A stretch of DNA of 64,000 bases from a virus. This document shows positions 38,131 to 42,421 of this stretch, in pieces. A model generated the notes under the pieces. It was given only the letters and a program-made list of their open reading frames with translations. It was not told where the DNA came from and ran no database searches. The position numbers and the translations under genes were made by a program. Location: positions 16,784-80,783 of IMG/VR virus record IMGVR_UViG_3300042399_001709; one strand, written 5' to 3'. How positions within the stretch are numbered: the stretch's first letter is position 1; each line of letters begins with the position of its first letter.

Positions 38131-38344
38131 TTTTCACCGCCGATTTCATGGTAATAAGCCACTGGGCCTCTTCTTCATTGAGTCTCACAAAATCCTCCGC
38201 TTGAATGTTTTCTGGAAAATGCACCGCGTATGGGTCGGTGTCGTTTGTCCACCTTGGAGAGTACGCCAAGGCAATGTTAAACGACGAAGACCATAGATAC
38301 CAAATTGCCGCAACTTTAGGGCTTGGTGGCGGTGTTTTGCTCAT
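38123..38344 (-). CDS. hypothetical protein
   Basis: ATG at 38344; overlaps the downstream start. Confidence 0.45.
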   Translation of the reverse strand: MSKTPPPSPKVAAIWYLWSSSFNIALAYSPRWTNDTDPYAVHFPENIQAEDFVRLNEEEAQWLITMKSAVKNG

Positions 38345-38475
38345 GGCAGGACTATAACACACCATGAGTAGATTTTCACAGGATTGCGCTTGTAACCAAG
38401 TCGCCACTATCTTGTGTTACTGCCCCTTTATCCGGGGAGTGGCGCCCCCTGGGCGCCTGGAAGAAAGGAGGCATT

Positions 38476-38859: not shown

Positions 38860-39318
38860 GTGAAGTCTAGAAAAAAGGATCGCAATGAAGAAATCGCACG
38901 TCTGTTCCTGGATGGCTACACGGCCAACGAAATCGGAAGGATGCATGGCATCAGCAAGCAGCGCGTCTCTTTTATCCTCCACAAGCTTGGCATCAGGGCT
39001 GAAGAGTCGTTTACAACAGTTACCCTTCCTGACCCCTACGTTGTTGCGTTGGATTTCGGGGATATTGCCAGTAGGGTGATGCTTGATTGGTCTGCCGCAA
39101 AAATATTGCCAAAGTTTGATTGCGTCATAACCTCAACCCCGGACACTGCTCATGTTGACTTGCGCCAATTTAGCAATCGAGAACACGTCTTGGCCTATGT
39201 TCCAAAGCTAGAAGGGGCAGAAATTCCAGGTAGGGAGATCCGTTCTAACTGGTTGATGTACGCCTACCCGCTTGAGGAGTCCCGGTTTAGTCCCTTTTCG
39301 CAGGCGGAACGTACTTAA
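38860..39318 (+). CDS. HTH protein (sigma region 4-like N-terminus)
   Basis: RNEEIARLFLDGYTANEIGRMHGISKQRVSFIL. Confidence 0.7.
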   Translation: MKSRKKDRNEEIARLFLDGYTANEIGRMHGISKQRVSFILHKLGIRAEESFTTVTLPDPYVVALDFGDIASRVMLDWSAAKILPKFDCVITSTPDTAHVDLRQFSNREHVLAYVPKLEGAEIPGREIRSNWLMYAYPLEESRFSPFSQAERT

Positions 39319-40099
39319 GCTTACTGACGGCAGCAGCATCAAACCGGTAGTCCAAAAATCCAGCGTGTCCGGTCCTGGCGTCAATCTTTGCCTTGACCTC
39401 GACCCCTGACTTTTTTGCCAGCCTGCAAAATGATACGTCTTCACCGGCGTATTGCGTGCACTTCACCCCATCAATGACAATCTGCTGATGCTCGTAGCGG
39501 AAAAATTGATGAATAGCCCTTTTGTCAAATTCAACCTTGTCTTCAGGGTTTGCTGCGATGATCTTCATAAGCGAAGCTCGTGATGCAAGCATTGCACCGG
39601 TGCCAATCCAGTCGACAGTCGCAAGCCCGTAGTCATCGGTGTGCATAATTCCGCTTTCTGGGATAGAGAAGTTTGCGTCAGACAAAATTGCCGGAATGTC
39701 TTTTGGGGCAAAGTCTGGGTTGTTTCGAACAGTTTCGGCAATCCGGTCCCATTTTGCAAACTTTTTGCAGCAAGGAAAGCCAACAATTGTGTTTTCAAGG
39801 TGCGGTAAGCACGCCAACACATCGCCTGGCTCGTAGTTAATGTCAGAGTCAACCATGAAGATCCAGTCTGCATCTGTCTCTAGGAAGCGATCCACAAGAT
39901 AGTTTCTTGCCGAGGGAAGAATCGAGTTGCCGGTAAGGAAGTCAACCTTGCAGTTGATCTTTTGCTGGAAAAGCGCAGACTTTAGATTGTCGTATGAGTG
40001 CATGTACTCCGACGAGACTCGGCCATCTAGCGTTGGCGTCGAGACCCAAAGCTTTGGGAACCTCTTTGTCGGCGCTGATTGAATCCTTGGCTCTGGCAT
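39287..40099 (-). CDS. GT-A-fold glycosyltransferase-like protein
   Basis: STPTLDG, ARNYLV, MVDSDI, GTGAML, GEDVSFC, GH. Confidence 0.75.
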   Translation of the reverse strand: MPEPRIQSAPTKRFPKLWVSTPTLDGRVSSEYMHSYDNLKSALFQQKINCKVDFLTGNSILPSARNYLVDRFLETDADWIFMVDSDINYEPGDVLACLPHLENTIVGFPCCKKFAKWDRIAETVRNNPDFAPKDIPAILSDANFSIPESGIMHTDDYGLATVDWIGTGAMLASRASLMKIIAANPEDKVEFDKRAIHQFFRYEHQQIVIDGVKCTQYAGEDVSFCRLAKKSGVEVKAKIDARTGHAGFLDYRFDAAAVSKLKYVPPAKRD

Positions 40100-40323
40100 T
40101 AGTTGGCCTTGCGCTTTGCGCCAATAGGTTCAGGCATCTTTCGCTTGTTCTCCTCTTCGTGCCACTTTGTATGCTCGCGCTGCAGGTTGATAAAGACGCC
40201 AATAGCTTCCCCCCACGCCCTGCGCTCGCCCTCCGCGACTTTCATTGCCATTCCCCCGGCAAGCAAAAGCGCGCTGATCAAAAACCCAACAACAAATCCA
40301 AGAAGCAATGCCGCAAAGTCCAT
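40099..40323 (-). CDS. small membrane protein
   Basis: N-terminal TM helix, GGAGA SD. Confidence 0.55.
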   Translation of the reverse strand: MDFAALLLGFVVGFLISALLLAGGMAMKVAEGERRAWGEAIGVFINLQREHTKWHEEENKRKMPEPIGAKRKAN

Positions 40324-40324
40324 G

Positions 40325-41143
40325 TTACTTTTCTCCTTCAAGCGCGTGTAGCGCAGCTAGATCGTACTTCAGCGCAAGTGAGGCGCTGTGCCGAGTATGG
40401 CCATCAACCTTGACCCACACTTCTCCACCGATTGCTCGGAACTCATCGCAGAAGTTGTAATCCTCTCCGATAAAATAATTTTCCCTCCGACCGTAGCGAA
40501 AATACTCAACAGTTCTTATCTGCTTTTCATCCATTAGCTCAATATACCATCGGTCCGGATAGGCCTTCTGGAAGCGTTCGAAGGCGCTTCTCTGGACAAT
40601 CATACACCCCGTTCCGGCATGTGTGGCACGCATTAAGCCAAGAGCTGCTTCTTGCTCGTTGGGCGCCGGTGCCGAATTGTCTAAGACAAAGTTTGGCCTA
40701 CCAAGCACGGCCTCAATGGCCTCCGCTGGAACCTCAGGGCGCTTTCTCACAAGATCTACTGCCCGGTCCCAACGAATTTGCCGCTTGATGCACGGCAATG
40801 CAACAATTTCTTTTCCTGCCGCAATGGCATACATCACGTCTTCCCAGTCAACCGTGATGTCGGCGTCAAGCATGAGGATGTGTGTTGCTGTGGACTCTTG
40901 CATGAACTTGGCAACGCATCGGTTTCGCGCTACCGGGAGCATTGAGCTGCCAACAACAAAACTCCAATGAAAATCAATCCCTACTTGGAGACACGCCCGT
41001 TGGATGCTCAACAGCGAATGCGTATAGCCGTGGTCCACCTTACCGTCGATGATCGGCGTAATGGCAATCAGTGAAATTTTCTCCGGCTGGGGGGCCGTAG
41101 TTTTCACAAAGCTTGCCGCTCGACGCTGCTTTTTCTTGCTCAT
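40325..41143 (-). CDS. GT-A-fold glycosyltransferase-like protein (paralogue of 39287-40099)
   Basis: ITPIIDG, ARNRCV, MLDADI, GTGCMI, GEDYNFC; start set at ATG 41143 after AAGGAG. Confidence 0.75.
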   Translation of the reverse strand: MSKKKQRRAASFVKTTAPQPEKISLIAITPIIDGKVDHGYTHSLLSIQRACLQVGIDFHWSFVVGSSMLPVARNRCVAKFMQESTATHILMLDADITVDWEDVMYAIAAGKEIVALPCIKRQIRWDRAVDLVRKRPEVPAEAIEAVLGRPNFVLDNSAPAPNEQEAALGLMRATHAGTGCMIVQRSAFERFQKAYPDRWYIELMDEKQIRTVEYFRYGRRENYFIGEDYNFCDEFRAIGGEVWVKVDGHTRHSASLALKYDLAALHALEGEK

Positions 41144-41302
41144 GGGTTCTCCTTCGTGGATGGAAGATACCACACTTTTTGCCCGTTTGGTGACGATTTT
41201 GGGGAAGGGGGGGAGAACCTTTAAGGAGAGGGGGGGATGGGGCTCCAGAGATCCGGGGGTCTGGGCTAATACTTCTTTTGTAGTTAGAACACAGAATTGA
41301 AC

Positions 41303-41331
41303 TTGACGGGAGTATCCGGGGGGCGTATGAT
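41303..41331 (+). promoter_or_regulatory. sigma70-type promoter
   Basis: TTGACG-17-TATGAT. Confidence 0.6.
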
Positions 41332-41364
41332 CGCAATCCTTCCTGGGGGGGATGGGGCGACGGA

Positions 41365-41757
41365 GTGACGGGGCGACGGGCTGATACCGGAGGTCGATTG
41401 ACTGGAAAAGATTTACAGCTGGTGAACGAGAAGGCAGAGTGCTTGCATTCGGCGGCAATCATTCTTGGGCCAGAGGGAACCAAGGCATACGGATTACCAA
41501 CAGATGTTGAAAAGTGCCTAGATTGTGGATGGCGGGCATTTGAGCAAGCTTGTGGTAAGCGGGTCGAGCTTCCAGCGGTGCAGATTGTTTGGTGGGAGAA
41601 GACCGAGAAGCGCGAAGCACATTGGATTGTTGAATGCTTTCCTGGAGATCTTGTCCCAGACGAAGCCAGCATCATTGGTCGCGGAGAAAATCCGGGCGAG
41701 GCAATGCACAACTTGGCTAAGGAGATTACTTCTTGTCTGAGGGGTCAGCGCCAATAA
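41365..41757 (+). CDS. hypothetical protein (start uncertain)
   Basis: ORF downstream of the promoter; GGAGG before a TTG near 41398. Confidence 0.5.
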   Translation: MTGRRADTGGRLTGKDLQLVNEKAECLHSAAIILGPEGTKAYGLPTDVEKCLDCGWRAFEQACGKRVELPAVQIVWWEKTEKREAHWIVECFPGDLVPDEASIIGRGENPGEAMHNLAKEITSCLRGQRQ

Positions 41758-41950
41758 CGAGGTGGGTTTCTTGCGGAATTTTTTCCTGCCAGGCCCAACC
41801 AGATCCCTTGTAGGTAATCTTCGGGGTGTTGAATACAACGCTCATCTCGCCGTTGCACACAAGGCATAGCTCCTTAGAGTCGTCGCTCATCTTGCGCACG
41901 GTCTCACGGACGATGTCGCACTTCTTGCACTTGTAGTCGTAAGCTGGCAT
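41726..41950 (-). CDS. FmdB-family zinc ribbon protein
   Basis: MPAYDYKCKKC...CLVC...ITYKGSGW. Confidence 0.8.
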   Translation of the reverse strand: MPAYDYKCKKCDIVRETVRKMSDDSKELCLVCNGEMSVVFNTPKITYKGSGWAWQEKIPQETHLVIGADPSDKK

Positions 41951-41961
41951 TCCTTCTCCTT

Positions 41962-42033
41962 TGGTGGAGCCGGGCGGGAGTTACACCCGCCGTTACCCTC
42001 AGGCATGATGACCTTTGGCGTTTACTCGGCCCC
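41962..42033 (-). ncRNA. 72-nt tRNA-like RNA with tmRNA/tRNA-Ala-type acceptor stem
   Basis: 5'-GGGGCCG pairs with CGGCTCC-ACCA (G3:U); T-arm-like GGCGGG-TGTAACT-CCCGCC; extended -10 TGnTATAGT just upstream; no canonical D or anticodon arm. Confidence 0.6.
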
Positions 42034-42049
42034 AGGGGACTATAACACG

Positions 42050-42421
42050 CTATAGCCCGAGCGTCACCTCTCCAGGCATTGCGTTGTCGCGGCGAGCCTG
42101 ATCTTCTTGGACCTTCCACTTCTTGGCAATCTTTCGGACAGCCCAAGAAGATCGAAGAAGGCTTCGGGCGCGCTCTCGTTGCATGTTCGACCACGCCTCA
42201 AGCTCCTCAGAGCTGGTGGCGAGGTAGATCCCGGCCGGGGCGTCGGATGCCGAACAAATCGGCTGCTCCCAAACATTCCGCAACTCTTCAACCGCCAGCT
42301 GGATTGCCCGGCTGTTCCACCGGGTGCGCTGGGAAAGGTCTTTATACGTAATGGCGTTCTTGCGGCCCACGCTAATCTGGGAAAGAATAAATACAAGCTC
42401 TGGGCCCATCTTGGTTTCCAT
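42050..42421 (-). CDS. winged-HTH protein
   Basis: GRKNAITYKDL...RAIQLAVEELR...PICS...GIYLAT. Confidence 0.7.
   Translation of the reverse strand: METKMGPELVFILSQISVGRKNAITYKDLSQRTRWNSRAIQLAVEELRNVWEQPICSASDAPAGIYLATSSEELEAWSNMQRERARSLLRSSWAVRKIAKKWKVQEDQARRDNAMPGEVTLGL

Follow-up and report, generated by a model that had tools for sequence, protein, structure and literature searches.

Mycobacteriophage DS6A encodes a small RNA that Hudson, Lau and Williams list as a 'TLD only' (tRNA-like domain only) transfer-messenger RNA (tmRNA; PMC4131195, Table 2), and the portion of that paper devoted to such molecules, citing Mao et al. (2009), states that one similar to that of DS6A strongly inhibits tmRNA, perhaps through titration of SmpB. 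The case is repeated in the corresponding passage by Nawrocki, Petrov and Williams, who add plastid forms of ~65 bp that lack a coding sequence (PMC11915505). As far as these passages reach, DS6A is the only phage mini-tmRNA that we found in the literature, and it is still tmRNA-like. Here, we describe a 72-nucleotide (nt) tRNA-like RNA encoded on the minus strand of a 64,000-nt stretch of viral DNA (hereafter called the window; positions 16,784 to 80,783 of the IMG/VR record IMGVR_UViG_3300042399_001709). The family to which it belongs constitutes a second, much more divergent lineage that standard programs for finding tRNA and tmRNA miss; it occurs in at least four groups of uncultured phages that are unrelated to one another, and it joins an invariant alanine identity set to a swappable middle.

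We located the RNA of DS6A at L174:28478-28560 (83 nt); the tmRNA model gives it 43.2 bits and our model R2 20.1 bits, in the latter case chiefly via its acceptor. Both this RNA and the one in the window are phage-encoded, ~70-85 nt long and equipped with an identical 7-bp acceptor containing the G3:U70 pair and discriminator A. Neither has a D-stem, an anticodon or a tag frame, both carry a short hairpin at the place of helix H2, and both begin just after an open reading frame (ORF) and escape ARAGORN. The DS6A molecule differs by its tmRNA-type D-loop, its UUCGAUU T-loop, a 5-bp T-stem and an ACUA end, whereas members of the present family combine a variable 5-nt connector with a UGNAACU loop, a T-stem of 6 bp and an encoded CCA, and reach 10.8-15.5 bits on the tmRNA model. 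The GenBank record has no annotation for the DS6A RNA, which is found 11 nt past gp33, in a genome that also encodes an RtcB-like ligase and MazG.

Bacterial tmRNA (RF00023) and the tag-less organelle forms share with our RNA an alanine-type acceptor, a T-arm and a variable insert; unlike it, bacterial tmRNA possesses an mRNA-like domain, pseudoknots and consensus sequences in its D- and T-loops. The alanine minihelix of Francklyn and Schimmel from 1989, an acceptor/T helix with G3:U70, A73 and CCA, reportedly suffices for charging in vitro; in contrast to that construct, the RNA studied here is natural and phage-encoded, stacks 13 bp and carries a central arm in addition. The stable RNAs 'species 1 and 2' of the phage T4 tRNA cluster have tRNA-like ends, lie with tRNA genes, as the variant on contig L199 (see below) does, and are longer, and we found no paper describing them. 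The tRNA-like structure of tymoviruses (RF00233) matches the T-arm only (10.1-18.9 bits), with a UGCAACU-type loop in common; it has a pseudoknotted acceptor and valine identity. A contribution of plant mitochondrial t-elements to mRNA end formation is described in PMC1920247. Like the tymovirus element, they are tRNA-like folds that act in cis, from other kingdoms and with other overall folds. We did not find a description of the present family in a literature search that did not extend to the T-loop motif, and the supplementary tables of PMC11915505 may list more phage sequences resembling tmRNA, this family possibly among them.

Anatomy and Fold of the RNA Element

The RNA and its parts occupy the following window positions:

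41962..42033, minus strand: whole tRNA-like RNA, from G1 to the A of CCA, 72 nt
42027..42033, minus strand: acceptor 5' strand GGGGCCG, positions 1-7, invariant in 11/12 distinct variants
42022..42026, minus strand: 5-nt connector at the D-loop position, positions 8-12, without GG and without a stem; positions 8, 10 and 12 variable
41995..42021, minus strand: central arm, positions 13-39, a stem with an internal loop and a CAUCAU loop closed by U-G
41992..41994, minus strand: 3-nt connector AAC, 5' of the T-arm, kept in 12/12 variants
41973..41991, minus strand: T-arm GGCGGG-UGUAACU-CCCGCC, a 6-bp stem and a 7-nt loop that reads UGNAACU across variants
41966..41972, minus strand: acceptor 3' strand CGGCUCC, in which the U at position 66 is U70 in tRNA numbering
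41962..41965, minus strand: discriminator A (A73) and encoded CCA, in 12/12 variants

The original prediction for this locus, made from the sequence without database searches, had proposed a 72-nt RNA on the minus strand, and it reads as claimed, running from G1 at 42033 to the last A of ACCA at 41962. The 7-bp acceptor with a G3:U pair, the discriminator A and the encoded CCA that it named are all seen in the sequence, and the anatomy it gave for the remainder, a T-arm with a noncanonical loop and no D-stem, holds; an anticodon is absent too. A central hairpin is likewise present, but 'short' does not do it justice, since it is an arm of ~10 bp with an internal loop that becomes Watson-Crick in the variant on contig L126.

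GGGGCCG and CGGCUCC form the seven acceptor pairs, the third of which is G3:U70, and are followed by ACCA; the T-arm stacks directly on this helix, so that a 13-bp acceptor/T stack results. The minimum free energy fold computed with ViennaRNA consists of exactly the acceptor, the central arm and the T-arm (-32.1 kcal/mol, z -2.2), and 4 of 200 shuffles fold as stably. A descriptor of the bare shape (a 7-bp stem, an adjacent 5-6-bp hairpin with a 7-nt loop, G3:U70, A73 and CCA) found a match in 8 of 100 Markov-shuffled windows, an average of 0.08 matches per window, and two in the real window, of which the second is weak, AU-rich and situated within the giant ORF of the phage. The shape alone is only mildly unlikely and hence weak evidence, and it is consequently conservation and covariation that carry the decision. 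The CAUCAU loop was also considered as an antisense sequence to a target and rejected, as 19 matches at no more than 2 mismatches were counted vs. 18.5 expected.

Conservation and Covariation in Related Phages

The 123-amino-acid (aa) protein encoded upstream of the RNA led us to nine related viral contigs, and the element is present in all nine. Between 64 and 72 of its 72 nt (89-100%) are identical to those of seven relatives, while at the DNA level the upstream gene is 74-93% and the downstream gene for an FmdB-type zinc-ribbon protein 80-88% identical in the same seven. The sites at which the 72-nt element varies fall in loops.

Three pairs change on both sides among the nine distinct 72-nt sequences. 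T-stem pair 45-59 occurs as C-G, A-U and U-A, T-stem pair 46-58 as G-C, A-U and G-U, and central-arm pair 20-33 as G-C, A-U and C-G; central-arm pairs 18-35 and 19-34 become Watson-Crick in L126. In this set, 91% of the cells are paired, vs. 30-57% when the partners are slid, and the covariation score is 0.123 vs. 0.066 in shuffles. Covariation in related phages had been named as a check by the original prediction, and the homologues indeed keep the pairing, with a score that none of 500 shuffles and none of the slid controls attains, also when contig L134 (see below) is added to the set. RNAalifold, to which the structure was not supplied, predicts the same three helices. On contig L199, the acceptor 5' strand reads GGGGGCG; pair 5-68 is flipped (G-C for C-G), the 3' strand compensates, and G3:U70, A73 and CCA are kept despite this flip. 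The two longer versions of 97 nt described below differ by a compensated pair in the central stem.

We conclude that the 72-nt RNA is a real, selected, structured and portable unit with a conserved alanine identity set. The claim of a structured RNA has thereby outlived the outcomes that the original prediction had listed as refuting it: there is no tRNA score, no integrase adjoins the element, and the pairing is conserved.

A Wider Family in Four Gene Contexts

Twelve distinct full-length variants of 72, 97 or 113 nt were recovered from four unrelated phage gene contexts:

Context i, this phage and its relatives: 123-aa gene, promoter, RNA, FmdB gene
Context ii, L126: unrelated ORF with a stop codon overlapping G1, RNA, 40-nt spacer, MazG-like gene
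Context iii, integrase-bearing phages of 34-36 kb: RNA between TerS and TerL, with a hairpin and a U-rich stretch after it
Context iv, L199: ORF with a stop abutting G1, RNA, UUUUUGU, bona fide tRNA-Tyr gene
L186:700-796, minus strand, and L187:2950-3046, plus strand: 97-nt versions, between terminase genes
L199:10105-10217, minus strand: 113-nt version with a branched 72-nt middle

G3:U70, A73 and CCA are found in 12/12 variants, and the borders of the unit, G1 and ACCA, are identical in all four contexts. The middle domain is variable in both sequence and size (31 to 72 nt) and occupies the position of helix H2 and the large insert in tmRNA; a 56-nt domain replaces the central arm in the 97-nt variants and a 72-nt domain does so in the 113-nt variant. 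On L199, the tRNA-Tyr gene lies 7 nt past CCA. The 97-nt versions show a C/U-rich loop of ~28 nt with anti-Shine-Dalgarno-like CCUC runs, and after them come a GC hairpin and a U-rich stretch. In the middle of the 113-nt version, we noted a purine-rich run and another T-arm motif, this one canonical in appearance (GGGUUCGAUUCCC).

The searches that yielded these variants constrained the sequence to different degrees. The synteny route fixed no sequence, the central-arm pattern left acceptor and T-arm free, the 3'-end pattern left the 5' half free, and the T-arm pattern left the acceptor free but, alone among the scans, required AAC; ACCA was required in the acceptor-ends and 3'-pattern scans and free in the synteny, central and T-arm scans. 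The central-arm pattern matched nine viral contigs and 30 metagenome stretches, of which the covariance model R1 accepted 9/9 and 8/30, respectively. The 3'-end pattern contributed four more viral contigs with two distinct 97-nt versions, and the T-arm pattern contributed the 113-nt version of L199. With the acceptor-ends pattern, run on 35 related records, three of the nine places listed were true copies, known from the other routes. Among the relatives of TerL, model R1 was run on 35 of 80 loci (mostly contigs of at least ~10 kb) and true copies were present in three of the 35, while none of the 32 loci reached through MazG (identity up to 48%) had a match to model R2. Several candidates were discarded: the 22 of 30 metagenome matches that failed R1, the best of which by R2 (L124, 24.3 bits) lies in a capsid-like ORF and lacks a T-arm; L198, L200 and L201, which have a T-arm-like hairpin but no acceptor; and G002, with a 12.7-bit match lacking the T-arm.

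G001, a complete relative of 91 kb with a TerL that is 86% identical, has neither the element nor the 123-aa gene; a DPBB-like gene stands directly before its FmdB gene, with a gap of 4 nt (L176:1489-2335). The 123-aa gene, the promoter and the RNA together form one accessory insert of ~0.5 kb that was gained or lost in the lineage.

In one metagenome contig, L134 (L134:113-430, minus strand; L134:134-205), a bacterial pstB-phoU-phoB' segment runs into the 3' part of an element of the L126 type, with the junction inside the central arm. At the joint lies a 21-nt word common to phage and phoB (PhoB receiver motif LPVIML), and the first 12 nt of the L134 copy are non-homologous, being coding sequence of a PhoB-type receiver domain. 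This contig is probably an assembly chimera rather than an insertion, and it was left out of the acceptor counts and of alignment A5.

Relation to tRNA and tmRNA Models

ARAGORN called no tRNA or tmRNA gene in the window or in the whole genome, Rfam at its gathering thresholds returned no match, and at E ≤ 10 neither the tRNA model RF00005 (whole genome) nor the mt-tmRNA model RF02544 gave a match. The ARAGORN and covariance-model checks that the original prediction had suggested consequently do not score the element as an ordinary tRNA. Among the tRNA-clan models of Rfam, tmRNA (RF00023) alone aligns end to end, with the interior deleted, at 10.8 bits (E 0.011 in a relaxed search of 201 nt); the L199 element scores 15.5 bits.

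Two hallmarks of tmRNA are found in the family. One is the 7-bp acceptor with G3:U70, the discriminator A and the 3' CCA (12/12), and the other is a helix or larger insert ahead of the T-arm, here represented by a covarying central arm. A G-U at the third pair is completely conserved in tmRNA and a potent determinant for alanyl-tRNA synthetase, according to the part of PMC3985003 that treats this pair. The 72 nt hold no mRNA-like domain, resume codon, tag frame or pseudoknots, and no tag-like frame was seen in the 113-nt variant either. A permuted tmRNA was considered for the 97-nt variant, for which model RF04321 gave 16.7 bits (E 0.1) by combining the 3' strand with a mismatched downstream GGGGCGG; we rejected this arrangement because the upstream strand pairs perfectly with the 3' strand.

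Promoter and Expression

The sequences flanking the RNA in the window comprise the following features:

42062..42067, minus strand: -35-like hexamer GTGACG, inside the 3' end of the upstream gene (promoter scan)
42039..42047, minus strand: extended -10 TGnTATAGT, here TGTTATAGT (promoter scan and alignments)
42034..42038, minus strand: spacer of 5 nt between -10 and G1 (6 nt in L108), variable in sequence with its length kept
41956..41961, minus strand: Shine-Dalgarno (SD) sequence AAGGAG of the downstream gene, directly 3' of CCA
41726..41950, minus strand: gene for a 74-aa zinc-ribbon (FmdB-type) protein; Pfam Zn_ribbon_8 1.7e-09; phrog_1076
42050..42421, minus strand: 123-aa gene upstream of the RNA; phrog_2113, no assigned function

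The promoter scan identified GTGACG-17-TATAGT with a TG, 5 nt ahead of G1. In the alignments, the relatives carry GTAAC[T/C/A] or GTGACC as their -35-like hexamer, and TG and TATAGT are kept in 8/8 distinct context-i variants, the base between them being T, C, G or A. A second GTGTTATAGT in the genome (window 38359..38344, minus strand) has GTGAAA 17 nt upstream and lies 6 nt before an ATG; the 72-aa frame behind it (to 38123) is a candidate leaderless mRNA and supports the promoter motif. On the basis of the conserved extended -10 and of the identical -10 located 6 nt before an ATG elsewhere, transcription is predicted to start at or beside G1. The extended -10 situated 5 nt upstream and the SD of the FmdB gene right behind CCA (AAGGAG, 41961..41956) had both been recognized by the original prediction, and the promoter scan, the relatives and the sequence bear them out. 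The FmdB-type gene starts with the ATG at 41950 and adjoins the RNA in context i only; the spacer between the SD and this ATG varies freely among relatives.

Nine RNA runs matched, with shares of at most 0.24, and four lake-water metatranscriptome runs were examined as Logan contigs. These four runs contained ten pieces of the phage at a depth of 2-4. A single contig of 151 nt (run X1, 41917..42067, depth 2.1) is the sole piece that covers the element, and it covers the promoter too; a piece from run X4 ends at 41956, just short of the element, and X2 and X3 have no piece on it.

Proposed Role and Alternative Explanations

We propose, with middling confidence, that the RNA acts in trans as an alanine-chargeable, anticodon-less mimic of the top half of tRNA or tmRNA, and hence as a functional analogue of the tmRNA TLD, of the type that DS6A encodes. 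Transcription would begin at or next to G1, driven by a dedicated sigma-70-type promoter with an extended -10, and the 3' CCA of the RNA would become exposed through cleavage and trimming of a read-through transcript via host nucleases. In the other phages, where the RNA lies between genes or before a tRNA gene, it would be excised by host tRNA-processing enzymes. With its invariant G1-C72, G2-C71, G3:U70, G4-C69, A73 and CCA, the RNA would qualify as a substrate of the host alanyl-tRNA synthetase, and judged by these identity nucleotides, we consider charging by this enzyme rather probable. As the RNA has no decoding ability and no tag frame, it would act in trans, competing with tRNA-Ala or tmRNA or serving as a decoy in a pathway in which their top half is recognized. 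We found no protein neighbor common to all four contexts, and the phage has neither an SmpB gene nor a Fem-type gene; its partners must consequently be host factors. Titration of SmpB, by analogy with the DS6A-like molecule, is the best-documented option, which makes the SmpB/tmRNA system of ribosome rescue the likeliest target; nevertheless, we rate titration as doubtful because the tmRNA-type D-loop and T-loop are missing.

If the RNA is charged and binds SmpB, phages would interfere with trans-translation more widely than has been assumed; charging without SmpB binding would point to a new viral use of an aminoacylated RNA. The RNA is short, simple to synthesize and amenable to assays with enzymes of E. 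coli.

A number of findings count against the proposed role. The score of 10.8 bits is far under the tmRNA threshold of 47 and the 43.2 bits of DS6A, and it would correspond to an E-value of ~3 for the whole window. In the alignment to the tmRNA model, the D-loop consensus GAucuGGaUUCGAC is deleted; a variable 5-nt connector without GG takes the place of the stemless D-loop, the T-loop is UGNAACU and not UUCGAuU in 12/12 variants, and the 6-bp T-stem generates an acceptor/T stack of 13 bp rather than 12 bp. The tmRNA D-loop, the T-loop and their interaction are needed for SmpB binding, as stated in the pertinent sections of two papers (PMC3968760; PMC3985003). Since the element differs in precisely these parts, we regard it as TLD-like at its acceptor end but do not file it as a tmRNA. 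Of the tRNA-like-domain-only or mini-tmRNA that the original prediction had envisaged, the first notion gains from the DS6A precedent, and membership in the tmRNA family is not borne out, given the low score and the missing loops. In addition, the 151-nt contig fits read-through transcription or DNA carry-over equally well. No terminator follows CCA and the SD comes at once, so that a free CCA would demand a cut only a few nucleotides from the ribosome-binding site of FmdB. The number of sequences is small and they are related to one another, and since part of the sequence was prescribed in three of the four search patterns, some of the invariance is built in. Finally, the absence of the RNA from the complete close relative G001 marks it as dispensable.

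The departures from tmRNA can be read in another manner, namely that the family, instead of being degenerate tmRNA, forms a class of its own that is specific to phages: alanyl-RNAs without an anticodon that serve as modular decoys or carriers of alanine and need no SmpB. A fixed handle (the alanine acceptor, AAC, the 6-bp T-arm with UGNAACU and the 13-bp stack) would bar EF-Tu and the ribosome, an exchangeable middle (the CAUCAU hairpin, the C/U-rich 28-nt loop or the 72-nt branched domain) would pick the partners, and the molecule might be used in host takeover or counter-defense. We consider such a class unlikely.

Alternatively, the element might act in cis, as tRNA-like punctuation or a leader whose RNase P and 3' tRNA-processing sites separate or stabilize messages. 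In the window, it would form the start of the FmdB mRNA and work in the manner of a t-element, and the freed RNA would have no function of its own. The position of the element between two genes of the same orientation in all four contexts fits this explanation, as does the fact that it fills the whole stretch from promoter to SD with no terminator; on L126 and L199, moreover, we see no promoter, and G1 overlaps or adjoins the upstream stop codon. However, a processing helix needs no G-U at pair 3, no A73 and no CCA, and yet 12/12 variants keep them while other pairs change. The L199 element adjoins a true tRNA, which would itself provide a processing site, and in the closely related G001 the same FmdB gene is expressed in the absence of the element. 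Collectively, we take a purely cis-acting element to be improbable.

A role away from the ribosome, in which the RNA would be a decoy for acceptor-end toxins or defense enzymes, a sink for alanyl-tRNA synthetase, or an alanyl carrier for a transferase without involvement of SmpB, strikes us as quite improbable. The 13-bp stack, the non-tRNA T-loop and the missing D-loop would speak against use by EF-Tu, the ribosome or SmpB, in line with such a role, and the element is an accessory, moron-like insert, as genes for counter-defense often are. According to PMC2655667, FemX accepts alanine from acylated helices that mimic only the acceptor arm and depends mainly on their G2-C71 pair; G2-C71 is invariant in the present family. 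Nonetheless, a Fem-type transferase was not detected in the phage (no match to PF02388 or PF13480), the four contexts have no neighboring protein in common, and our data name no specific toxin or defense system.

It might further be argued that the element has no RNA function and is the relic of an attP site that duplicates the 3' end of a tmRNA or tRNA gene of the host. Unrelated phages have almost the same 3' half, the phages with the TerS/TerL context encode a tyrosine integrase, and L134 joins bacterial genes to the 3' part of the element. Yet this 92%-complete genome encodes no tyrosine or serine recombinase, and in 3/3 integrase-bearing records the element lies ~9 kb from the integrase; an attP remnant, which the original prediction had itself held out as a refuting outcome, did not materialize next to an integrase. 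The 5' strand, unneeded in an attP copy, is present and compensates in L199, and the promoter is conserved. A 21-nt 3' pattern matches eight places in 185,579 species genomes, none of which has an ARAGORN tRNA or tmRNA or a match to R2, and L134 may be an assembly chimera at the 21-nt common word. An attP origin is thus very improbable. A decaying tRNA-Ala pseudogene or chance fold, for which one could cite that no detector calls the element and that the bare shape occurs in ~8 of 100 shuffled windows, is judged refuted, with scarcely any probability left to it, as the element is conserved above its flanking genes, covaries and recurs in four contexts.

Genomic Neighborhood

The source of the window is an IMG/VR virus record of 80.8 kb, judged 92% complete, from an uncultured freshwater tailed phage whose genome has a terminase and an ORF of 4464 aa. 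The 2-kb region, the 72-nt element and the 113-nt variant gave no blastn match in INPHARED. No close relative was found among deposited phages, and as no cultured representative was found, we name no host.

AlphaFold2 modeled the 123-aa neighbor of the RNA from six sequences with a pLDDT of 49.8. Downstream of the RNA lie two paralogous phrog_1574 genes (window 39287..41458, minus strand) with weak glycosyltransferase-like matches. One homologue is present in L126 (L126:420-1325, downstream) and one in G001, so that this gene occurs with or without the RNA. A lone plus-strand ORF of 130 aa (window 41365..41757) is situated between the FmdB and the phrog_1574 genes, and its counterpart in G001 has 115 aa (L176:1176-1523).

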